Below, piece after piece: positions 16,326 through 60,965 of a stretch of DNA of 64,000 nucleotides. How positions within the stretch are numbered: the stretch's first letter is position 1; each line of letters starts with the position of its first letter. The notes below the pieces were generated by a model. The model was not told the origin of the DNA. It was given only the letters and a program-made list of their open reading frames with translations, and did no database searches. Source of the DNA: Paramecium tetraurelia (taxonomy: Eukaryota); assembly GCA_000165425.1 (NCBI GenBank), contig CT868060.1, positions 124,001 through 188,000 of the forward strand, read 5' to 3'. The position numbers and the translations under genes were made by a program.

Positions 16326-19300
16326 TCAAATTAATAGGAGGAGGATCGTAATTAGAAGAATGTTTATAATGGTTTAGAAGCACTGTTTACACTAGTTTTC
16401 AACGTTGTGATAGACATGGCCTGTGTTGACAAAGCATTAAGTGGGAGTCTGATTATAGGACGCTGCATCTGATAAGGGAGCACCTCTACACTCATTATAG
16501 TTGAAATCCCAGTAACAAAGAGCGATATTGATAGGTGAATAGGAGGTGTATACATAGGTGCAGTCAGATTGACTAGTATAGGAGTTGCAAGATTGGGTGA
16601 TACAGGAATTCAGGACAACACTCCATTGACACCTGTTTGTTTATAGGCTACAAAGAGCTACATCAGTAATCTGGTTGCAATTGTCAATAGTCTTGCACTT
16701 TTTATTGTTCTCATTCCAAACACAGACTTCTGAATTATACTCTTGGCATTCAGTTTGATTCAAGTAACTGCATTAGGTGGGGGCACTACAATTATTAGTA
16801 GAATTTGAATTATGGGAAGCATTTAGAGTTAATACTGGACAATTGATTGAGGTAGTGTAGCAATCGAGAGCAGATTTGGGATTGGTGATGTTCTTGCATC
16901 CAGCAGCAGTTGAACTAGGTTTTGATGAATATTTATAGCAAGTGGATCCAATATAAATACAATTTTGGTTAACGACGCATTAATATTTAGAGGTAATTGA
17001 CGAGCAATCTTATATAGCACATTTAGAGGAAGTAAAATTGTAAGAGCATTGAGGGGAAGCCTATTGGCACTCGGCTTCGGACAATTCTGCACATGAGCAA
17101 ACGGAATCGAATGATAGTGATGTAGCATATTGATTACAGGTTGTACAATGACCACTGTCTGCTGAGGTGGATATCCATCGTGACATCATAAAGGTATTGG
17201 TGTAGCAATTGGTTGAATTTAAAGTAGTAAAGATATTTTTAGCTGTTTGACATCCTACAGTTGGTGACCATTAACATTAAATTACGCTCGAAGGTGATGG
17301 AGTAGATAAGGTAGTCAAGACATAAGTGCATTCTAATTGATTGTTAATGATATTGCATTAAGTAGTAATACATGAGCCTTGGGTTGCTTGTCCTGTTGGT
17401 TATTACCAGTAGCAATAATGAATGAGTTCTTGACATCTAGTTTATGATTTAATATCTGAACAAATAGTGGCTAAAGTGCATTGTTAAGTGGTAGTATTAA
17501 ATAAACAAATACCATTTTAAGTAATAGTGTTTTCACATTTTGAAGCAGAGGGTGTTTCTGAAACAGTACTACATTGAGTTGCTGTTTGGGCACAAAAATA
17601 CTTATCTTTAAGTGATGTCTTTGCATTAGCAGTTGCTGCACAAAATTAAGAATAACTAGCACATTCTCCAGAATTGATACCTACTAGATCTGAACATTTT
17701 GTAAATGGTTGACATAGTTCTTAAGTTGCTGACCATGAGCATCTAGGATTGGTACTACAAATTTCCTGTAAAACAATTTCAGAACATGGCTTATTATAGC
17801 AACTTGGTGTATACTATGCAGTTGAATAAGAGCAAGTAGGATTTGATAAACAATCATTCTTGTAGATCAATTAATTACAAGCACATTGTCCAGGAACATA
17901 AAGAGAATTCAACAAACATTTAGTACAATAACCATCACTATTACTACCTTGAACCCATCTATATGTGTATCCTGTATTGACTGAACAAGTCATTGAATTC
18001 AATAATGAAGATGTAATCATATTAATGCAACTTTGTGACACTGTTGACCATTGACATAATTAGAGCTCCCCTGTCAAGAAAGAGGAAATCACATACTTGC
18101 ATGATGCTGGACTTTTGAAATAATCACACGTAAGTTACTAGCATTAGTCATCTACAAGTACACACAGATTTTTGTAGTAACTGCAAATTTTGGGAATAAA
18201 TATATCAGAACATATTGATATTGCCTAACATGATGCTTTCCCAGCCAAATTCCATAGGCAAGGACCATCAGATCCAAAGTTGCCATTACAAGTGCTTGGA
18301 CTCTATTATGCAGTACAAGTATAAGTGGGATATTAAGTGCATGTTTATCCATTGTAACCTTTGCATTAGATTGAATAACTCAGACAATTTTCTAGGTTAA
18401 TTCCTAATCCAGATATCGAATTGCATGAAGTGAAATTTTCACAAACACCATTTCTCCATCCACAACCTACAGTTTGAGCACATGCTTGATTAGTGTAAAT
18501 GTTGGCACAAGTTTGTACATTGCATGTACCGTTGTTCCAAACACATGATCGTGGTGAGTCTGAACATTCATTTTAGGTCATGTATTAATAACATTAACAG
18601 ATGGTAGGTGAGTATAATGGAACCATGTTTGCAGAACAAGAATAGCAAATTCCTCCATCTCTATTCTAATTTGGCATCCATCTTGCTGTTTTGTTGGTAT
18701 TTCTAAAACATTGGTTTGAAGGCAAAGCAAACGGATCTTGTATTGGAGCACATTGATTATTAATCAATTAGCAAATCTATAAATTGTTGATGAATGTTAA
18801 GCTCATAACATAAGTGCAATATCCAAATTATTAGTAGAGTGTGCCACATGTTAAAGCTTAGCAAATTGTCTAATCCCAATAACAAGACGTTGAGCTGAAT
18901 CTGCACTCAGATTCTGACAGTTGGTTACAAGCTTAGTAAGCAATGCATTTCATCTATTGATTATTCCAAAAGCAAACTCCATCCCGTCCTTTAGCTGTAG
19001 AGATACATGAAGCTTATTAGGTATTCTCTTAGCAATTATTTAATGATTTGGTGCATTAGGTTCCATTGCTACCAATGCAATAAATATTTTGTGCCATACA
19101 TTAATATTGAGAGCTGCCTTGTAAATTACTACATTGTCCATTGAATACTTGGCACTAATTGTTGTTCCACATACAACCTATTTGAGATGCACATACAGTT
19201 TTCTATAATATTTATGGACATTCTAATTGTTGGCAAAAGGAATTATTCCAGTAACATTCCAAGGCTTAAAAACAATCATATTAACTTAGAAATGTGCAAT

Positions 19301-21611
19301 CGCACTAATTGGGAAGAGTGACTTACTTCTAACATTTCACACAATATCCTTACGAAATTGACACCCAACTATACGTATTATAAGTATTTAATGAGCATGT
19401 ATTTTAATTTAATGTAGTTAAAATATCATCAGCTATCAAGCATGTATTATTACTGGTATTCCAGTAACATGGGATGATTTCAGATGAGAGTGGGCTGGGT
19501 AGATAGAATTTGCAATTTAACTCTGTTAGGAATGATGCACAAGTAATTTATAAACACTGATTATTTATAGTGTTCCATTAACAAGAGAATTGATTTCTTA
19601 AACACAGAGTCGCATTCTAAGCAAGAGCACATTAAGAGAATCCAAAGCACTAGGTAGTTTAACCAGTAGTGCTCAAGAAACACACTCCATCAGTACCTAT
19701 GTTATTATAACAACTGCCATCGGCTGTGTACATGGCTGAACAAGTGGAGGTTGGGTAGGATTGACAGATCTGGTTACTGATTCCATTACATGAAGCATTC
19801 ATACTGACACACTCTAATTGATTGGCAGCTGGTGGTAAATCAGAACAACTAGTGAATGGTGCACAGTAATTGTTATTCCAATAGCAAGTACTTAATAAAG
19901 CACAAGTAATCTAATTTTCAAATGAAGTGCAAGGTGAGGGCTAACAAATATTAGATGCTTTGTTGAATGTGCAGAATCCTGAGTTGTTACAATTGTCTTA
20001 AGACTAAAACTATTAGCATTGGCACGAAGATGGTGTTTAAAATGGCAATTGATTGGTGCTACATGAAACACACATCCCTGCAGATGCATTATTGGTACTC
20101 CATCTAAAAGTGTTTCCTGTAGCATTAACACAAGTCTTTGAAGTTTACAATAGTGCAGAATAAGCATTTTCGCAAGTTCCTTGAGTTCCTATTGAACTGT
20201 TCCATCTGCACAATTAATATTGCGTTTATTAGAATTGTGTGAGAACATAGGTACAATTGTTTTGGTTTGTGATCATTGCACAGGTCATTTATTAGCATTA
20301 TGAAATTGATGCATTCCAAGTGCATTAATTCTACCAACTTCCACAAATTGGAGCATCAGTTATCTGACTACAGTATTATAATAGTGAACATGAACTATTT
20401 GAAACATTCCAAACACATAGACCCTAATTGCTTATGAATTATGAGCAAGTTTCTTGATTCGGTTAATTACTGCAAGTAGGAACTATGGCTGATGTACTGT
20501 TACAAATTCCTCCTGTATAACCAGCACATTATAAACTTTAAGCTGCACATCCAATTGCACTCACTTTAAATGTTAGATCAGTGCAATTATTCAAAGTTTG
20601 GCATGAATAGCCATTAAAGTTCCAATAACAACCAGAGATTGTTATGCAAATATTTTAAGTTAATATTTTGGAACAGGTATTAAATGTGCAAGTTTGAGTT
20701 TATGTATTCCAATAGCATAAACTCTGTTGTGAATTGCAATCAGTTTCTAGGACATAGTCAGTACAAGTACATTAGGTTCTAGTTATTAATTACACTTGTT
20801 TGCAGGGACCACAGAAACCTTAAGTAGGGTTATTTTATTATCCATACCATCTAAAGAGTAGACCTGTATTCGACAAGCAATTCTATTAATTCAAATTATT
20901 AAGGTAGGTCACAGGAACACATGAGGGGGGAGTGGTATTTTAAGACCAATAACAGACATTCAATATGATTGAGTTCAAACTTGTAAAATAGTGTTTGCAA
21001 GTGTCTTCACTATTGAATTGATTACAACTTGAAATAGCTTGGCATTACATAGTAGCTGAGTTCCATTGGCATACCATTCCTTAGGGATATTCGGATTTGA
21101 AATAATTGAGTTAATAGCATTAATCTTGTTAAGTAGCCATGGAACAATTATTGATTACTTGACATTTATTATCAGTCCAATAACAGGGTCCATCTTTACC
21201 AAAGTTGTAGGAGCAAATAGCTTATGGGAATTCAATGCATTTGGAAGTAATTTGATTATAGTATAAACACTATTTGGATTTAGAATTAAATCCTAGGCAG
21301 CGAACATTTTATTAGAGACATTGCTAATTATCAGTAGCTACTAAATTTTCACATGATTGAAATGATGAACATGAAGGAGTGTCTGCTGTGAAGTTCCATT
21401 GGCAATATTACGAAGCCTTTAAACATGAAGATTGATTTAGCGATAAGCAACTCTATTACGAGCATGAGTTGTTTGCCCATTAACAACCTGGTAATGTGTT
21501 ACAATCATGTTGATTTGTTAATTGCGTACAACCACAGATGGTTTATGATGTGACCTAAACTTAAGATGTTCCTAAGCCTATCAAAATAGCTATTAGGATA
21601 TATGCTTTCAT
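16326..21611 (-). CDS. 1761-aa GPI-type Cys-rich surface protein made of 7 tandem mini-antigen-like modules
   Basis: Signal peptide MKAYILIAILIGLGTS; 5286 nt divisible by 3; module starts CxC...C near 21536, 20771, 20024, 19304, 18599, 17885, 17099; recurrent G-x-D-G-x-C-x-W; ends CKQCFQTIINILLITILLLLI*. Confidence 0.85.
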
Positions 21612-29627: not shown

Positions 29628-32600
29628 ATGAATTTTATATTCTTTTTTAACATATTACTCCGGTAAAGCATTTCCCTTGAAATTACATCTGAAGTATAGA
29701 CTCTTTACTATTATCCAGGGGAAAACAAATACACTCCAGAACTTAGATATTACGTTCCATTTGAGTAACATTTATTAGACTCAAAAGATGCTCAATTTAA
29801 TATAGAATTAATGCAAGAAGTTAAAGTGGAGAAACATCATTTACCTTTTATTTCGGATTAAACTTAATTATACTACTTTCAAAATATAACAAGTGAATAG
29901 GACAACATGATAATGGTGTTGGATAACTCAAACTTGTATTGCTTATATTTAATTAAAAATTATTTTTTGAATTAATAATTAGTCATTATCCCACACTTTT
30001 GTAACATTACCTTACCATACCAATCATGCAGCAACCTATTATAAATAAAGAATTAAATTATTATTAGTAATTGCTAACTTAATTCAAACTAGGTAGCCAT
30101 TTCTATTATTAATTTTGATGGTAAAGTATTGGATGAAAAGGTCTTTGAAATTGAATCTACTTGTAAATTGCAAATCTCCTATGGGGATTCGATCTTATTT
30201 ATCTATTATTAAAATTGTAATTCTGATAATTTCTATAAAATGGAAATCGATTAAGTATCATATTAATATACCTCATTCAAAATTTATGACATTTCAAACA
30301 AGAATGATGATAAAGTAAACTCTACTTACAATTAAATAGAGTATATCAATATCTGCAATAAGTGGAGACATAATATTCTTTATAGCGATAAAATTGTGTA
30401 TTACAACTAGGAAATTTTGAGTTAGCCTTACTTCTTGGATTAGGTTAATTCAACAATATTGAAGGAATTTTTATTTTGCAAAGGACATCAATTTATTTTG
30501 TATATAGATAATGATAGATAGTAATTGAAATTTGATGACTTTGATTTAAATGTTAATTTTAGTCATTATATAAATTCTTTTTGGATAGACAAAATTTTAG
30601 TTTTGCATCGTAAAGATTAAATAATTGCTATAATAAATGATTAAATACAACAGAAAATAGACATAACCATTTCTTAATTGGTGCCAATAATTAATTCTAC
30701 TTATATCTTTGGACTTTACTAAGGACAATTAAGGCTATTTAAAATGTAACCTCCAACGCATTACCATTCATTTAATGTTTCATAGAAAATAATATATTTG
30801 ATTTTTTAAAGACTTTACAACCTATTTTAATTCAACTTAGGGTAATTGAACATAGAAGTACTAAATGAAAGTGAGCCTAGAATAATGGTTAATAAATAAG
30901 ATATTAATATTTTTTAACTCACAACTGAAGAAATCTGCTTGGAATAAGCTTAAATATCAAAAAATTTGCCGATAAATATAAAGGCTATTAAAGAAGGTGG
31001 AAAATCTTATTCAATTAAGTCTCAAAACACAGAGGCATACTTCATGAATTTTGATGAAGACTCAAAAATATTGCATTTTTAGAAATTAAATGATTTAACA
31101 AACGTTTTGATATCAATTTAATCCAATAATTTAGTCAATTTAGTGTTTTGCAAATTTGGTAAAGTTATATAAAAATATAAAATAAAAATACTGCCAAATT
31201 ATATTGATATTAGCATATTTTAAAAAACAAATATCCTGATCTTTAGTGAGGATTGCATTCAATATTATAAGATTGAAAATCCAGCATAAATTTTATAAAA
31301 ATAGATTCCATAAATAAAGAAAATAATAAAAGTGAATAATTATCACAACGAAATTGTTATTTTGTATGATGATTGTAGCAAATCAAACCTACTCTGGATT
31401 TTTGAAAATAACCTTATAATAAGAGAATAAAAATATTAATCCTATAATTGTACTTAAACATAATTAATTAATTTGTTTAGTTTTGAAAATGAAATTATCT
31501 ATAGATCTACTTGGATAGAGAAGTATGTGTAGGAAGGGAAAGTGGTGAAGATTTTGGAAGATGTAGAGTAGAGTCTATATCTAGTAATTGTAGAAGTAGG
31601 AAATAGATTGATACTCAAATTTTTTCGCTATTTTAAAAATGACTTCACTTTTATGTACAATGTTCCTGCCTACAATTTTATATTTGAACTTTCTGCCACT
31701 TATAAATTCCAAAGCGGTTATTTGATGCTAAATGCCAAAAATTAAGGTAAAACGTTTTTGCTAGTATATTATTTAAAAAATTAAGCCATTAATTCTCTAA
31801 TATATGTTACTGAAATTGATTCGTCGCCCTAATTTTTTTCATACTATGATATAGGCAGCAAAAAAATAGCATTTTTAAGAGATAGAAAATTCTAATTTAG
31901 TATTTTACATTAGATTTGTATGAATTACACTTTTACTCAATAAGGTAGCATCATATAGGTTAAATAAGTCTCGTTGGTTTTAAACACACTTATCAATAAT
32001 TTGACTACCTTCCTAGACGTGATGATTTTTAGTTTATATAGAGATTACTCGCTTAGTTTATTGAATTAGAAGATGAGAATTATAAAAAATTAAGATCTTA
32101 TTGATTGGAATTCGATCACAGGAAATATTGTAAATTTTAAAGTTTAATCATCTTAAAATATTACCATAAATGTACCTCTGAATATTACATAAGAGTACTT
32201 TTCATGTTTATATTTTGAATCTAATATTTGTTTAAGAGATAAATATACAATTGAAATAAAATCTCTTAACATAAAAAATTGTTTTACGTTTTAAATTACT
32301 GATAGCTAAATTAAAAAGATTGTTTTTAATTAAGAATCTCTCACCTATTCAATCTTTTCGAATGAAATTAATTTTGTCTAAAAATTTATAGTATAAGTGA
32401 ACAAAGATAAGCCAGATGAATTTACACTAATCAAATTGGAACTATCTACACAATTAATTGATTAGGTTTGGAAGATAAAAGGGATCAAGGAAATTGATGT
32501 AATTTTTATGTCAAACAAATTAGATGTATTCATGTATTACAACAACTGCTAAATATTTGGTTTGTTTAACAATCTTGCTGTTTATTACCTATTTGATGGA

Positions 32601-33434
32601 GCTTAGCTATCAAATAATATATATTTATTTTTACATTGGAACTACTCATATATTTAAATATCAGTTGTTTCATTTAATAATATTTAATTAGGTTCATAAT
32701 GTTAATTGAAGTGGGATATTATATAGTATCATGATATTAAAATTTAAAAAAAAATCGAAAAAATATACTCACATCATTTTCATAAGGAATTAAAGTAGCT
32801 ATAGATCATTAATTTAGAAAAAAGGGAAGACTTATTTTTCATTAAGATTGCTTTGATTTATAAGCATTACTTTACTTTATTATATGAAGTTTCCTTCAAT
32901 CAAGTTAGTTATGATAATCTAGTAATTGAATCATATCGATTTCTAAGATATGAATTCAACACTCTATTTTTGGATTTACTTTACGCAGATAATAATTTCT
33001 TAGTTTTGACACTCTAAAAGGACTCCTAAGAATATATTCATGTGTATGATATCAAAGGGGATATGAAGTATAAAGATTACTTGGATAGTATTTAGAGAAT
33101 AGAATCATTTAAGTATAAAAAGATAGAGAAATTTAACGAATCTCATTATGTTATTTATAGTGCGAATAGTGGTGGAGTCTACTTTATGACTTTAAATCCA
33201 TTTAAAATAGAGTGTTAAGGTCAATGCAATGAAACAGCAAATTTAATACTCACTAATGATGTATCAAGCTTAAGTTTAGAAATATAATTTAAAAATTCGT
33301 CACTTTTTAATGTTGAATTTACAATCAAATCAGAAATCCTTCTAGCTAATCTGATATTTATCTTGATTATGTTGAAACTAGAAAAAAGAGCAAAAGAAAT
33401 TTAAGTAAACCAGTATAAGATAGGAATTGAATGA
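29628..33434 (+). CDS. ~1268-aa single-pass membrane protein (signal peptide, large beta-rich ectodomain, C-terminal TM); family member C
   Basis: MNFIFFFNILLRQSIS; 3807 nt divisible by 3; CLYLIKNY, LPAY/NFIF-like, DSIQRIE...FNESHY, IECQGQCNETANLILTNDVSSLSLEI then hydrophobic LLANLIFILIML; motifs shared with 52876 and 56902 genes. Confidence 0.8.
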
Positions 33435-52875: not shown

Positions 52876-55800
52876 ATGAAAATCATCCTGTTATTTGCTG
52901 AATTAGTTATACTGTCGAAATAGGCTATAAAAGATGATTTAATAAACAATAGTTAGGCTGGGGTACTTTATTTAGAAAATGAAAATGTATTCTAATTTGA
53001 TAAAACATATGCAATATATGTAAATGGTGAGGATTTTAACGATATGAAAAATTATAGTGTTGATATATTAGAGGAGATTAGTATAGAAAAGAGGTAATTT
53101 AATGATTTAAATGGAAATGAGAAGATATTTAGTTTGAATAAGAATGGTGATGATGATATTGATATTATGTTATTAAAGAATGGAAGTATTGAATGTTTAT
53201 ATTAAATTAAGAATTACATTTAGGATGATCAAATAATTATGAAATCAAAAGAGTGTTAAATATTGTTAAATCACTAAGATTGCAATCAATTATATAAATT
53301 AGATTAAGACATCTATATAATTTAATGTAATTACAATTCAACTAATACTCTTATTTAAATTATCAATCAAACATAAATATTAGATCAAATTATACTTCCA
53401 ATTCAATCTAATTGTTAATCTGATTCCATATTCAATAATCATCAAACATTAATCATATTTAATAAATTATGTTAAACTACCATATTCCATTCCATCTCCA
53501 TCTCAAATCTATTAACCTTTTATAATCTTACTCAATATGACTTAAAAGATGATAATTCAATATAAGACTTTACTCCAAGTGCTTTGTTTAGTATGCACTT
53601 TTGTTCAAATGACTTAATCGATATCAACTTTCATAATCTTTTTATCACTTATATTTTACCTTAGAAGATAATTTCAAAAAAAAAGTATTTCACAAATGCA
53701 CATAAAATTGTGTAAAGGTTCTAGTCTTGTGAAAGTCATAGCAACTATGTCGAACTAAATGAGAACAGCAATTAACTTTTAGTTAGGAAAAAGACACTAA
53801 ATATAAGTACCTCATTTTATATCTAATCATACTGGATTAATTACTTGATGGTTTTTCATAAACAAGATGAATTAGTAGTACTTTTTAATAATAAAGTAAA
53901 ATAACACATAACCAATTCTTTTTAATACGTATTAGCTTTGACAGAGTTGCCCGTAATTTTTGCAATTAAGGAAAAATTAATGATCATATATAAGGTGAAT
54001 TATCCTTAACAATTTTTTACAGTATCTCAAGATTAGCACCTTTTAAAGAAAATAAGAATAAATACAGATTATGTTTTTCCTCCATCAGATTTATTTTATA
54101 GTACGATTGAAGTCTCGGCTAAATAAAATCTAAAATTTTTACTTCTAACTTCGAAAGCTACATATTTTATTCCAAAAATCAACAGTACAGTTTGCATTCA
54201 TCACAACATATTACAAAAAACAGATGCTTTTGAAATACTCGTTAGTTAAGAACAATCAAATTTTAACATCATTGAATAGAATGATAATATAAATTTCTGC
54301 ATGGTGCAATTAATCTCTAAAGGGAAAGCTTTTGTTTTTGAAAATAAATATTAGAATATTGATATTATAATAACGTAACAAGATCAAATTTTATCAATAT
54401 ATACTTGTGAGAAGAATAAACTAAAACATTTTAATAAAATATTGATTTAAAAGAATTACAGAGATATTTTATCATTTCCCCATTCTTTTTAACTGGTTAT
54501 CATTTACTATTATAAAATTGAATTCATAGAATTTTAAAACTTATAAGTTATTTAATCTACACAACACTTTGATAAAAAGATTTTAAATTATTATTAAAAT
54601 TATGAATAAATAAATATCTTATTCGAAGATTGTACAAAGGCCGATGCAAATATCAGAGTTAGAGATATATAGGCCATTTTTTAAGATAAGTATCCGTTTG
54701 ATTGTAAGCTCAGTCTTTAGTTTATATTTAATGAAATATTTATCACTTAAGATAAAATGCTATGTTTCCCAATTAAGGGCTTTAGGAGAAAGCTGGTTAA
54801 TTTGGAAGGTTAGAAAAATATCATGACAATTGTACTCAGACAATTTTTGATTTTAGTAAAGTAGGTGGAAGATGAATACTAATTGAATTTATTTCACATA
54901 AGCAAGACGGAGGCAATTTTCTTATATAATCTACCGACTTATGATTTCCAAATCAAAGATTAAATATCATATTAAATTTTTGAATACTTCCTTATTATCA
55001 GGGCTTAGAAGTAAGATAAAAATTATTTATTGACTTATGATGTAAGTAAAACAGCTTTGTTATCTCTTATTCGAATTACATAGATTGATCAATATGAAAC
55101 CTTTTTTTAAATCATATCTTCAGATTCGTTCCTGTATTATTTTTAAGACAAATTTAGAATCAAAAACATAGCCATTAGTTGTTTCAATAATATTCCTAAA
55201 GTTATAAATGGCACGTTTATATTAAATTAAGAATTTCAATTTTAAATTATTTCTTAAATTAATAAAGAAATTTTACCCTTTAAACTTGAACTCATTTCTA
55301 TTAGTGATGATTACAATTTAAGGATACTTAAATAAGAACAAACCATAATCTCCAAAAATACAATCAATTTAAGGAACATACATGGTAACATAGAGAAGAT
55401 TGAAATTTTACCATTAGACGATTATTAAATAATATATCCAATAACATTTACTGATGTGCATAAAGATTTTACTTTTTACGAATAAGGAATATGTTATGAT
55501 TAGTCAAAAAGACTTATCATTAATTGTTTTGATGACCATCAATACTATATATAAGATAATACCATAGAAGTAATCCTCAATGTTGGTTATGCTAAGGATA
55601 AAACTTTTTATCAAGTTTTTTATTAATCAATAACAGGAAATATTAATTTTATGACAATTAATATCAAATTAGATGAAGTTTATTATGAAATCAAACAAAC
55701 CGCAATCCCAGATAATTATTACAAAGACTTATACAGTATTAATTTATTATTATTAAGATTCTAAAATTAAAAAAATCTAAACAACATAAAATCTATCAAC

Positions 55801-56698
55801 TTTTGAGCTCTTTTATTAAAATAATTTGTTTACATACAACAACATTTATGCCGAATAATTAAGAGAAGCTTTTAAAGATAATACTCTTTTGGAGGTAGCT
55901 TATTTAATTGATTCTACATTTCTTTTTCTTTCCAAATAATCACCACAAAATATAATTATGAAGTTTATTGTAATTACTGAAGAGAATGAAAAAGAAATTA
56001 AATGTGATATTAGATTATAGTATCAAGTAAAATTAAATGAAATAATTCCAGAAAGTTTAATAAACATGTTATATTATTAAACAACGAGTTTAAAAATATT
56101 TGAAGTTCAAATTGAATAAGAAGTAATTCATTTTCAAATCGGTGTTTTTTTTCTTGAGTATTTTTCTATTTTGATTTCATATGAAATGGATATCAATTTT
56201 TAATCAATGCCGAAAGTAGAAAATACTGCAATATTGAGATATTAGAAGGATTTTTCATTAGAAAGGCCGCTCTTTGTTGATAATAATATTACCCTGTTGA
56301 TTTTGGATTTCAATAAAATTGAGTTTGTTTATGTATATGATACTCGTAGAAAACAAGCCTAAAACAATATTGATAGTATTTAGAGATTTGAAAATAACCA
56401 TTTTACAGGAATGGAAAGGTTTAATTAATCTCACTATTTACTTAAATCTATGGTTAGAATCTAATTTATCACTCTTGATGAACTGAAATTCACTTGTTAA
56501 AATGAGTGCAAACCTATTCAATCTATATAACTTAGTAATTAAGTATCAAAAATCTCAATAGAAATTTCAAATTTTGAGTATAACAAAATATCTAGTCTAG
56601 AAGTAAGGAAAGTAGAAGTTTGCATTATTATAACTATATTTATACTTATTTTACTAATTCTAAGGTTTTCAAGGAGAAAAAATGTATAAAAGAGTTGA
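52876..56698 (+). CDS. ~1266-aa single-pass membrane protein, family member A
   Basis: MKIILLFAELVILS signal; open in frame 1 to a 22-nt intron 55736-55757, then frame 2; LYNLPTYDF, IDSIQRFE, FTCQNEC...LSNQVSKISIEI, TM VCIIITIFILILLIL followed by RFSRRK. Confidence 0.85.
53050..53528 (+). repeat. Copy 1 of a 479-bp perfect direct repeat (508 bp with 2 mismatches: 53042-53549) inside gene A
   Basis: Line-by-line identity with 57070-57548 at a constant offset of 4020. Confidence 0.95.
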
Positions 56699-56901
56699 AT
56701 TATGAATTTATATATTTTATTTGCTTAAAGCTAATTTTGTATATCTAATAGATTTATTATTGTATATCTGAATGCATTGACATTGTTTTGAATGAAATAA
56801 CTATAATATTAAATTAAGTTATAACCTAAACATAGAAATCTCAAAAATTACAATAACTACTTAAGTTAATTTTTATTCAGTATTAAATAAACAAGTTTTA
56901 T

Positions 56902-59900
56902 ATGTTCTTAAAAATATTTTTGCTTATAAAGATAACTTTATGTTAGAGTGTAACCACCTTATTAAAGGAGATGAACTATAATATTTTTCCTGACGAGAAG
57001 ATCTTTGTAAAAAATGAATAGTATGCAATAAATATTAATGATGATAATCTAGAAAAAATTCATATGAATAATTATAGTGTTGATATATTAGAGGAGATTA
57101 GTATAGAAAAGAGGTAATTTAATGATTTAAATGGAAATGAGAAGATATTTAGTTTGAATAAGAATGGTGATGATGATATTGATATTATGTTATTAAAGAA
57201 TGGAAGTATTGAATGTTTATATTAAATTAAGAATTACATTTAGGATGATCAAATAATTATGAAATCAAAAGAGTGTTAAATATTGTTAAATCACTAAGAT
57301 TGCAATCAATTATATAAATTAGATTAAGACATCTATATAATTTAATGTAATTACAATTCAACTAATACTCTTATTTAAATTATCAATCAAACATAAATAT
57401 TAGATCAAATTATACTTCCAATTCAATCTAATTGTTAATCTGATTCCATATTCAATAATCATCAAACATTAATCATATTTAATAAATTATGTTAAACTAC
57501 CATATTCCATTCCATCTCCATCTCAAATCTATTAACCTTTTATAATCTAACTCAATATGACTTAAAAGAGGGGGAAGGACTTACTCAAACTACTTAATAA
57601 TTGATAGATATTTAGTTTATCTCTCAATTCGAATTAGCTATAGGGTACACTAATTGTATAGTTTTTTTTTTTCTCAAAGCACAGGGTTTGTCATTTGACA
57701 TTAAAAATCAGTAGTTTTAAATTAAAGCATTTTACGTAACCAATAAACCATCCATCAAAATATTGGTTGAAATAGATCAGAACAATTAATAATTGTATTT
57801 GAATAAACAATAATTGAATTTCAGTAGTATTGGATTTTAAAAGGTTCTTTTAGTTAAAAAATATTTTTATTTGTTTCACTTTACAGATAAAATATTTGTT
57901 TAATTCAAAAAAATGTATTCAAATACAATATCCATCAATACCAAAAACTTGGTTTAAATTGGTGAGTTACCCTATTTTATTGCATTATCAAATAAATAGT
58001 TAAGATTAATTAAATTGATCATGCCTAAATCTGTTGTATCTTATAAAAATTCTGATAAATTGTTAGTAATTTAAACTTTGTAAACATAATTTCCTAGTTT
58101 CATCCTTAATCTAAAATTATTTGATCGACATAATCCAATCTAATACTTTCCAACAAAAAAATTATATCTTGATTTAATTAATTATTACAGGGATAATTAA
58201 TTAATATGCTTATCATATATGAAATTTCAAAGAACTCTTCCAATATAAATAACATAGATAATGGAGATGGATAATAGATAAATAGCTGCAGATGATTACT
58301 CAATAGAAATTACATCGAGTTTGAATTTAAATGGAATCCCAACGAATTATAAATTTCTTTTTCTACACAAGTTTTAAAAGGATTAATTGGTTTATGTAAT
58401 AATTGAAGAAAATACTATTATTCAATTTATATTTTATGATAATGGAAAGTCTTTCAAAACACATAAATTTGTTTTACTTGCTAATTTGATAGACATTTTT
58501 ATTAATAGATAATAAATATTAATAACAATAGTTTATGAAAAGTCAATTGAAATTTATTAATTAACATTTGGTGACATACAAAGGAAACTGCATTAAACAA
58601 AAATGAAGATAATTGCAGCAAGATAACTAAATTATTTTGTATATTATTTACTTGAAAATTGTAATAAGGTTGCAATAAGATTGTAATCAAATGATATCAA
58701 CTTTGAAATGTTAAAGTATATTTTTGATTGTAAAAGTTCTCTTTAATTTATAAAAGAAGATGTTTATATAGATAGTCATTCTATAAGTTTGAAACATAGG
58801 ATGTCTTTTTACGTTCAAAAATTAACTTTAAAAGAGCAGGTAATTGAAGTAAGAAATATACTAACAGATCATCTTCTGCTGTTCACTTGTTATAAAAATA
58901 AATAGTATGTTAAATTATATCAAGTTAATTTGGATGAAGTTTTCTAACTTTACACTCTACCCACATATAATTATTCTATCGAGTTCCCATTTTACTATCG
59001 AATAGAGAAGTCAATTTTAATGATTAAAGCAAGAAATTCTAGCTAAGCTTTCTTTATATTGATTTATGATGTCTAAAAAACAGCAGTTGAATGCTTGATT
59101 TAAATTACGGAAATTGATGAGGAAGAAAGATTTCCATTTGATTTTGTTAACGAGGGCGAATATTTTTTTTAATTTTAGGAATAACTTAAAATACAACCTT
59201 TGCATCAACCATGTTTTTACTTCAAACCAGTTTAAGATAGTTTAGACTTTATTTATGATAAACCTCTAAAAATTATAACTTACTCATAAATTAGCAATTA
59301 ATATGTAGATCTAGAATTCCATCTTATTATTATTAACAAGAATTATACATTATAATAATTGAATTTGAGTAAGAAGATATTAACAGGGAATATTGTTAAC
59401 GTAGATAATATTTTTGGAACTGTTGAAAAAGTTGAGATTATTGGAACAGAAAATATATTAGTAAATTTACCACTTACGTTTAACAATTGTTCCAAGATTT
59501 GTCTTTATTATGGATATGGCGTTTGTGTTAATAGATCATCTATTATAAAAAATATATTTGATTAAAGCATATCTATATCACGCTCTTAATATACAGAATC
59601 TCCCATTTTCTATGTTGGATTTAATCCAGATGATTGCATTCATGCAATTTACATAAAGGGTAATGATTCTCTATTACTGAATCAATTTAATTTTTGCAAT
59701 TAGAATTAATCGTTACTTTAGAATTACAAAGTCTTAACCAACATTGAAAGTAATATTACAATATATTTTAGCATTAAGAAATTTCAGATAAATTTAAGAT
59801 TTACAGATAGCTGGTCATTTCTTCGATAATTCCTATTTTAGTTTTAAATAAAAGAAATTGCTTGATAACAAACTCTAAGATTCATTCAGATAAGTTACCT

Positions 59901-60730
59901 TTGATTTTTTTGACGCCATCAAGATCAATAATTCCACTTACTTAACTCTAAATGTAAAGTTATAGTTGTTTGAACTCAGACTCATAGATTTTATTCTAAT
60001 AGGAGACCAAGCTTAATCTGATATCATTTTCTATAAATATTATGTATTGAATGACATGATTGATGATACTCATCTGAAATTCCATTAAGTGGTCTTTAAA
60101 ACAATTTACATCTATTAAATTATCAACAACATTAATCAAATTGAAATCCTGTTTATTGTTTTTTTTAAACACCATCTGGCTTATTTAATGAAATTAACAT
60201 TTGATTAGAATAATTTAGATCAGATGAAATTAGTCTAATAGGGAATGATAAGATACAATTAGGATGCAATATTTGAGAAGTTACTCTTTATTGATAATGA
60301 TTACATTGTTGCAGCCTTTAAATTTGATGAAGATACATTTATTAATGTATTTGATATCAGTGTTTTATCAAAAACTAAAAATATAGACAGTATTTAAAAG
60401 TTGAGAGATAATAATTATACCCATATTGAAAGATACAACGCAACACATTTTGTAATTGTTGAGAGTGTAAGCTAATCTTATCATTAAGTTCATTTAATTA
60501 GAATTAATAAGTTAGGACTTGAATGTTAGGAATAATGCAATGGAACTGCTTATTTAAAGTTAAGTAATAAAGTATCACAACTTTTAATTGAAATTAATTT
60601 TTCGCCTGAATAAAATATTCAAAAGGGTTCTTTAATCATTATCCTTCTCATTATTAATTTTATTTCTATCTTGAATAGATTGTGGTGTAAAAAAAAGGAT
60701 AAAAAGAAGAAGGTAATCTTGAGTAATTGA
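56902..60730 (+). CDS. ~1268-aa single-pass membrane protein, family member B (tandem paralog of A)
   Basis: MFLKIFLLIKITLC signal; 22-nt intron 59750-59771 at a position equivalent to A's intron; LYTLPTYNY, IDSIQKL, LECQEQCNGTAYLKLSNKVSQLLIEI, TM LIIILLIINFISIL followed by KKKDKKKK. Confidence 0.85.
57070..57548 (+). repeat. Copy 2 of the 479-bp perfect direct repeat inside gene B
   Basis: Identical to 53050-53528, same reading frame. Confidence 0.95.
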
Positions 60731-60965
60731 AAATATATTATTAATGATTAAATCATATTTTAAAATAATATTAATCATTTATTATATGAAAATGAAACTA
60801 ATACACTTTAGTTTATTACACCATCAATTTAAAAAGATCAATATAAATTCAACTAAAATATTATTTATATTAGACAACAAGAATGAAAGAATTTAATTAG
60901 GAACAACAATTTATCAAGTGTGTTTATTATATTTAATTTTAATTTATAATTTTAACGACAAACAA

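Follow-up and report, generated by a model that had tools for sequence, protein, structure and literature searches.

INTRODUCTION

In Paramecium tetraurelia, paralogs left by whole-genome duplication (WGD) have a median longest identical stretch of 108 bp, and gene conversion between them has been documented (McGrath et al. 2014, PMC4199370); a later study also documents conversion between Paramecium WGD paralogs (Gout et al. 2023, PMC10195154). Segmental conversion has been proposed for the Paramecium surface antigens, with nearby intrachromosomal duplicates said to favour it (Baranasic et al. 2014, PMC4235209). At the mating-type locus of Tetrahymena thermophila, the germline holds incomplete gene pairs arranged in an array, and the soma retains a single assembled pair, the other pairs being deleted (Cervantes et al. 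2013, PMC3608545). Here we describe a pair of tandem genes, A (52876-56698) and B (56902-60730), predicted to encode type-I membrane proteins, which are largely diverged and share a single, nearly perfect segment of about 0.5 kb (the tract). They lie in a stretch of 64,000 nucleotides (nt) of P. tetraurelia contig CT868060.1 (assembly GCA_000165425.1, positions 124,001 to 188,000), hereafter the window, in whose numbering all positions are given; features are on the forward strand unless stated otherwise.

The pair resembles the WGD paralogs of the aurelia complex in that the shared identity extends to synonymous sites. As those studies describe them, however, the WGD pairs lie on different chromosomes and are still fairly similar, whereas A and B stand in tandem and have about 24% protein identity outside a single-segment tract of 479-508 nt. 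In surface-protein families such as the trypanosome variant surface glycoproteins (VSGs) and the Paramecium surface antigens, as these have been described, part of one member is likewise copied into another, giving a chimeric surface protein. Unlike these systems, A, B and a third member of their family in the window, paralog C (29628-33434), are not surface-antigen genes, and they show no expression site, no silent-copy archive and no sign of repeated switching. With the Tetrahymena locus, as presented in the source cited above, the pair has in common a ciliate host, tandem membrane-protein genes and a shared segment at which joining could occur. In that account, however, the shared segment is the C-terminal transmembrane exon, whereas A and B are both complete in the somatic-type sequence of the window, on which this comparison is based, and are kept at equal depth in two sequencing runs. 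Literature searches, which covered conversion in Paramecium generally and were not aimed at this pair or family, found no paper on either. The A/B tract is a new instance of the known non-allelic conversion between paralogs, and it is unusual only in its contrast, a perfect core of 479 nt against the low protein identity elsewhere.

RESULTS

Two diverged genes share one segment almost letter for letter

Self-comparison of the window by BLASTN (E ≤ 1e-5) gave no non-self match besides one pair of segments, at 53042-53549 in gene A (residues 56-225) and at 57062-57569 in gene B (residues 54-223). The two copies align over 508 nt with two mismatches and no gaps (99.606% identity). A separate search for repeats, in which the reported length was capped at 300 nt, gave the same pair with a spacing of 4020 nt. 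The longest exact run, at an offset of 4020, is 479 nt long and confirms the base-for-base identity of 53050-53528 and 57070-57548, synonymous sites included, that had been claimed in a preliminary description of the locus. Past one mismatch on either side, this core is flanked by further identical runs of 7 nt on the left (53042-53048) and 20 nt on the right (53530-53549). The left mismatch, A at 53049 in gene A and T at 57069 in gene B, is base 8 of the tract and nonsynonymous (Lys/Asn); the right mismatch, T at 53529 and A at 57549, lies at base 21 from the right end and is synonymous in a Leu codon. Outside the tract, 60-nt intervals compared at the same offset agree at 13-30 of 60 positions, as expected by chance in DNA so rich in AT.

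Codons and proteins were compared in the same way. Among codons that specify the same residue in A and B, 166 of 167 are identical within the tract against 152 of 274 outside it, where third positions agree in 40.4% of cases (32.9% expected by chance). The proteins are 98.2% identical over the 170 columns of the tract, 23.8% over the 1012 columns downstream and 20% over the 50 columns upstream. The codon phase at which the tract begins is shared by the two genes ((53042-52876) mod 3 = (57062-56902) mod 3 = 1), as had been proposed, whereas the multiple-of-three distance between the copies, to which significance had also been attached, says nothing by itself, as it includes an intron and a spacer. 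Neither edge of the tract shows a gap or a change in length relative to B-type proteins, indicating replacement in register. A signature of GC-biased conversion was not found (GC content 20.7% in the tract and 23-27% in its flanks), and a single event would leave none in any case.

Two further features of the tract sequence were recorded. An exact match of 21 nt between the tract (53195-53215) and the body of gene A (55215-55235) stands in a different reading frame and was put down to chance in AT-rich DNA; it forms the centre of a 34-nt match at 85% identity (53188-53221 and 55208-55241), 2020 nt downstream. Near the left border of the tract, a TATAG resembling the end of an internal eliminated sequence was noticed by eye only.

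The tract in gene B is of A type

Protein searches yielded a set of 12 relatives, 11 carrying Paramecium names and the twelfth (P0014) being paralog C. The orthologues of A are P0004 (P. primaurelia) and P0005 (P. pentaurelia), and those of B are P0006 (P. octaurelia) and P0007 (P. primaurelia); the nearest relative of B is a P. octaurelia protein (80% identity by BLASTP, 75.6% in the multiple alignment). Protein identity of the tract is 76.3% to P0005 (169 columns) and 83.0% to P0004 (53 columns, the P0004 model starting within the block), against 52-58% to five B-type proteins from P. tetraurelia, P. pentaurelia, P. primaurelia and P. sonneborni. The tract also carries a one-residue insertion of A type (NN[HN]QT, against K-ET in B-type proteins), and both P0005 and P0004 carry this type of sequence joined to A-type flanks.

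The maximum-likelihood tree of the tract pairs A with B (support 97/100) inside the A clade (85/98), and forcing B to join the B-type proteins costs 22.1 log-likelihood units (approximately unbiased (AU) test, p = 0.019). The tree of the body, built from the remaining 1056 columns, places B with its P. octaurelia and P. primaurelia orthologues (100/100), and forcing it into the A clade costs 82.4 units (AU p = 2.5e-5). On these alignments, the trees of tract and body conflict and the tract in gene B is A-type sequence, supporting A as the donor and B as the recipient.

A transfer in the opposite direction, with B as donor and A as recipient, is very unlikely. It gains some room from the native block of B having escaped view and from the less than maximal support for the A clade (85/98). 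Against it stand the higher identity of the tract to the A orthologues than to the B-type proteins, the shared A-type indel, and the finding that the A orthologues of two other species join this sequence type to A-type flanks on both sides. Among the 12 relatives, no N-terminus of a true B orthologue was found, and a search for short models gave a P. sonneborni fragment only.

Both copies are present in independent sequencing runs

For any perfect repeat it is conceivable a priori that an artefact of assembly, collapse or polishing has hidden a truly diverged copy; beyond this general point, nothing was found in favour of such an artefact here. The stretch is contained wholly or partly in 20 of 24 listed public runs, from 11 studies, and 16 of the runs contain at least half of its sampled words. 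Four runs were compared with positions 53600-60900, which include only the B copy, so that reads of the A copy appear as extra depth and as loose junctions. X10 and X12 are DNA-like runs from different studies, neither of them flagged as a possible source.

In both X10 and X12, the core forms a unitig of exactly 57070-57548 (479 nt), with a depth of 53.1 and 146.6, respectively. The left flank of the A copy is on a contig of 460 nt that ends 30 nt inside the core (depth 26.4 and 75.9). A contig of 3601 nt leads from the right edge of the A copy through the A body and the spacer to the left edge of the B copy, reaching 30 nt into the core at both ends (25.2 and 76.3), and one of 3913 nt starts 30 nt inside the core at the right edge of the B copy and continues through B (27.6 and 74.8). 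Neither run's contigs showed differing letters, indels or alternative paths, whether from the flanks of B or elsewhere. Both junctions of the tract with gene B are real, and the core, which has twice the depth of its flanks and no further branches, occurs twice and not more often. A contig joint leading from 57569 back to 53600, with 50 letters between, was considered as a rearrangement and rejected, as it is the right junction of A itself placed on the B copy.

By the contigs of two runs, there are two true copies, and the collapsed or chimeric assembly against which the preliminary description had cautioned is excluded; the presence of the stretch across studies, the junction contigs and the doubled depth of the core leave an artefact a vanishingly small probability. 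The further identical copies that the same description had envisaged were absent by unitig depth and branching in X10 and X12.

The depth of the excisable segment does not support a cassette switch

It had also been suggested that the block is a maintained recombination substrate, serving as a cassette or expression-site switch loosely analogous to mating-type assembly in Tetrahymena. Programmed or frequent somatic recombination between the direct repeats would then delete 4020 bp and place the body of B behind the promoter, signal peptide and first propeller blades of A (see below for the predicted fold). The geometry allows this, since the repeats are direct, exact over 479 nt and equal in codon phase, so that any crossover would yield an in-frame A/B chimera; the ciliate macronucleus is, moreover, highly polyploid, and rare recombinants could exist in it.

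However, A and B each run from a start and signal-like N-terminus to a C-terminal hydrophobic segment and a stop, and both are kept in macronuclear DNA. The 3601-nt contig, which covers most of the excisable 4020 bp, is at the depth of its flanks (76.3 against 75.9 and 74.8 in X12; 25.2 against 26.4 and 27.6 in X10), and the deleted share that these values imply, -1% to 7%, was taken as noise. The copies number two only, with the core unitig at twice the flank depth, no extra branch and no other match in the window, and the locus lacks what defines the Tetrahymena system, both genes being complete and neither deleted. While the in-frame geometry of a crossover stood, the excisable segment is not depleted in X10 and X12, and a switch of this kind is highly improbable. 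Contigs cannot bridge a repeat of 479 nt, and rare chimeric molecules are invisible to them, which leaves room for a low-level A/B crossover product.

Among the indexed runs that contain the stretch, there was no RNA run. In a poly-A RNA run (X24), four reads fell on 53600-60900 (genes A and B) among 19.2 million records, about a third of the run. A and B are close to silent in this sample, and the number of reads is too low for chimeric transcripts.

The tract coincides with an island of A/B similarity

The A protein of P. pentaurelia was compared with four B-type proteins, using only protein pairs untouched by the A/B conversion. In columns 61-240, identity was about 33-89% per 20 columns (mostly 50-89%), and on either side of this island it was 0-45% (mostly <30%). 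The borders of the island coincide with those of the tract, which by this comparison fills the one pre-existing stretch of A/B similarity, as homology-dependent repair would give.

The fold of this region was predicted with two AlphaFold models of A, built from a nine-row alignment and of moderate confidence. The mean predicted local distance difference test score (pLDDT) was 62 for model 1 (residues 1-300) and 67 for model 2 (residues 51-500; predicted template modelling score (pTM) 0.67). Within residues 81-380 of model 2, the means of 10-residue blocks were mostly 74-92, with three blocks at 58-69. The prediction is a beta-propeller of about seven four-stranded blades, spanning approximately residues 83-385 of A. 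With Foldseek (E ≤ 1e-3), model 1 had 141 matches and model 2 at least 500, and the top matches were all propellers. The predicted N-terminal fold of A resembles the propellers of Vps18 (4uuy_A), BamB (4imm_A) and COPB2 (8d41_B), with a template modelling (TM) score of up to 0.59 on the target; the likeness to WD40-like propellers is one of fold only, with a sequence identity of 6-14% and no Pfam match. In the predicted membrane topology, the propeller would be extracellular. On these models, the tract would correspond roughly to the N-terminal lead-in plus about blades 1-3, ending between blades and inside the propeller, and B would carry a hybrid propeller in which the first blades of A sit on its own body.

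The shape of the island is relevant to another history, segmental concerted evolution, in which the first blades of A and B would have been exchanged time and again, with selection perhaps favouring a common N-terminal surface, and the tract seen today would be the latest round. Such a history would fit the sharp edges of the island in other species, the identity of its borders with those of the tract, and the position of its right border inside the predicted propeller and not at the end of the fold. Paralog C is equally far from A/B in the segment (26%) and elsewhere (23%), although the segment evolves about three times more slowly among the A orthologues, and in the tract tree the A clade has the P. 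sonneborni B-group proteins as its neighbours instead of lying outside all B-type proteins (58/65). However, the AU test rejects neither an ancient exchange nor the ordinary topology, with all B-type proteins together (p = 0.247 for the latter). Moreover, the rate of the tract among A orthologues, about 0.3 times that of the body (0.28-0.32 against about 1.02), roughly predicts, with no earlier exchange, the distance from A to the B-type proteins (0.82-0.86 observed, about 1.1 expected). Finally, the P. pentaurelia A protein is no closer to P. pentaurelia B2 (59.6%), which is encoded on another scaffold, than to the B-type proteins of other species (55.4-62.5%). Repeated exchange is on balance unlikely, though it keeps some weight beside a single conversion.

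In a bolder form, which we consider improbable, the first three blades would have been a hot segment for conversion since before the aurelia radiation, with an occasional somatic crossover giving an A/B chimeric receptor under the A promoter. If true, this would explain a sharp-edged island in every species, and it would be a eukaryotic case of long-lasting segmental concerted evolution with constant borders and a possible somatic read-out.

Several of the orthologue models are irregular in or near this region. The models of P0004, P0006 and P0007 lack N-terminal sequence, the first residue of P0004 falling within the block and those of P0006 and P0007 hundreds of residues further on. A repeated block in P. 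primaurelia and P. octaurelia as well may have misled the annotation, or the genes may truly be disrupted. In P. sonneborni, a B-group gene on a contig of 10,272 nt is annotated as two proteins, P0011 and P0012, comprising an N-terminal part of 291 amino acids (aa) and a C-terminal part of 831 aa. P0005, the A orthologue of P. pentaurelia, contains an inserted run of about 20 Asn (one Ser) in the region of the block, and its model is cut off at 734 aa.

Gene models, family membership and neighbourhood

Gene models were read under the ciliate code (NCBI table 6, in which TAA and TAG encode Gln), and the frames are open only under this code. In both A and B, two candidate GT..AG introns restore a single open reading frame (ORF). 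Exon 1 of gene A, the donor, is an ORF at 52876-55735 and encodes the signal-like N-terminus, the predicted beta-propeller and the ectodomain. The predicted intron of 22 nt (GTA...AAG, 55736-55757; the other candidate has 34 nt) preserves, on a reading of the sequence, the spacing of the P. primaurelia orthologue. Exon 2 (55758-56698) encodes the C-terminal hydrophobic segment (at about 56603-56659) and a short basic tail, and the spliced model is open over 1266 aa. A spacer of 203 nt follows (56699-56901); in X10 and X12 it lies on the 3601-nt contig together with the A body and the 5′ end of B.

The recipient, gene B, has an ORF of exon 1 at 56902-59749, a predicted intron of 22 nt (GTA...TAG, 59750-59771), which lies 6 nt from the position homologous to the A intron at offset 4020, and an exon 2 at 59772-60730 that encodes a C-terminal hydrophobic stretch and a Lys-rich tail. 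The spliced product has 1268 aa. Paralog C is an intronless ORF, also of 1268 aa, which agrees letter for letter with database protein P0014; it belongs to the same family and lies outside the conversion. The best intron model of gene A ends in AAG, unlike the TAG end of the gene B intron. A contig of run X16, a run of uncertain nature guessed to be RNA, passes unspliced through the A intron, from which no conclusion on splicing or expression was drawn.

A, B and C are alike in having a hydrophobic N-terminus and a C-terminal hydrophobic stretch followed by a short basic tail, and they carry 21-22 Cys residues and 12-20 N-x-S/T sites; among the three, only A passes the hydropathy cut-off for its C-terminal segment. 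Relatives are labelled "Transmembrane protein" in UniRef. Judged by these features, A and B are complete predicted type-I membrane-protein genes. No Pfam family was matched by A or B at E ≤ 1 or by C at E ≤ 0.001, and a match to PF01508 (Paramecium surface antigen) is absent from all three. C is 26.2% identical to the tract segment over 168 aligned columns and 23% identical to the rest of A/B. This agrees with the earlier view that C holds a homologous but diverged version of the block, and C together with the alignment of the relatives bears out that the block is a native part of the family's proteins rather than something inserted.

Neighbouring ORFs in the window include those for a Paramecium_SA-domain protein and for Vps8-like, EF-hand, UCH, PX and MORN proteins. 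A Cys-rich ORF on the reverse strand (16329-21611, 1761 aa) matches PF01508 at 23 bits, and a second large Cys-rich ORF on the forward strand (37-1677) has a similar Cys-rich make-up and no Pfam match. A true surface-antigen-type gene thus shares the window with the A/B/C family. In P. primaurelia, the orthologues of A and B are presumably on one contig (both entries have 327,340 nt), and the tandem arrangement is therefore probably old.

DISCUSSION

The identity of synonymous sites, the conflict between the trees of tract and body, and the presence of both copies in independent runs support the earlier suggestion of a very recent gene-conversion tract. We consider a single, recent, germline non-allelic (interlocus) conversion from A to B to be the probable explanation. 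A break would have arisen in gene B in the germline of a species of the P. aurelia complex, probably P. tetraurelia itself, during meiosis or the germline mitoses, and the neighbouring paralog A, 4 kb upstream, would have served as the repair template. About 508 nt of B (residues 54-223) would have been replaced in register by A sequence. The copied stretch would be the only segment in which A and B were similar enough to pair, and the tract would stop where the similarity stops. From the patterns described above we infer a repair mechanism, a germline origin, a young age and the absence of a programmed role.

With every sexual cycle, ciliates build their macronucleus anew from the germline. 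Because the tract is present in the cultures of X10 and X12, which were sequenced years apart (2019 and 2023), and because of this rebuilding, it is most likely germline-encoded.

Two bodies of evidence bear on its age. The A and B copies differ at two of 508 nt (0.39%), a level comparable in order of magnitude to the density of single-nucleotide polymorphisms (SNPs) between strains of P. tetraurelia, which is given as 3.0 SNPs per kb for two strains (PMC13085455). In the protein trees, the path from A to B in the tract measures 0.017, as against 0.35 in the body between B and its orthologue in P. octaurelia, and the tract evolves at about 0.3 times the rate of the body among A orthologues. 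As a rough estimate from few changes, the event would be much younger than the split from P. octaurelia.

Several observations weigh against this reading or soften it. Both mismatches lie within 21 nt of an end of the tract, which for two random mutations has a probability of about 0.007; this suggests patchy repair at the ends of the heteroduplex over two later mutations, and the age estimated from mismatches is therefore soft. Before the event, the protein identity of A and B in the segment was probably only about 55-60%, which is low for ordinary homologous repair, and a route by microhomology or template switching is therefore indistinguishable from homologous repair. The tract pair falls inside the A clade with less than maximal support (85/98), and the AU test measures incongruence, not direction as such. 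Among the B-orthologue models compared, the native block that B carried before the conversion was not found: P0006 and P0007 have no N-terminus, and P0011/P0012 is split. A repeated event therefore keeps some probability beside a single one. Finally, copy number can be gauged only roughly from the depth of Logan contigs.

A single conversion from A to B would otherwise be an ordinary evolutionary event, and there is no evidence of a dedicated mechanism. It offers a clean and datable case of non-allelic conversion between neighbouring genes whose divergence is otherwise saturated, and it makes dating of the A/B pair by divergence misleading. There are also practical consequences. RNA interference (RNAi) in Paramecium acts on short identical stretches, and neither short reads nor RNA-seq counts nor RNAi constructs placed on the shared 0.5 kb can separate A from B.

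The germline of P. tetraurelia has been credited with the highest recombination rate reported, 420 cM/Mb (PMC13085455). If the conversion took place as proposed, protein similarity of about 55-60% within a short island is still enough for that island to act as a repair template over 4 kb, and a beta-propeller, as predicted here, would tolerate the exchange of three of its about seven blades.

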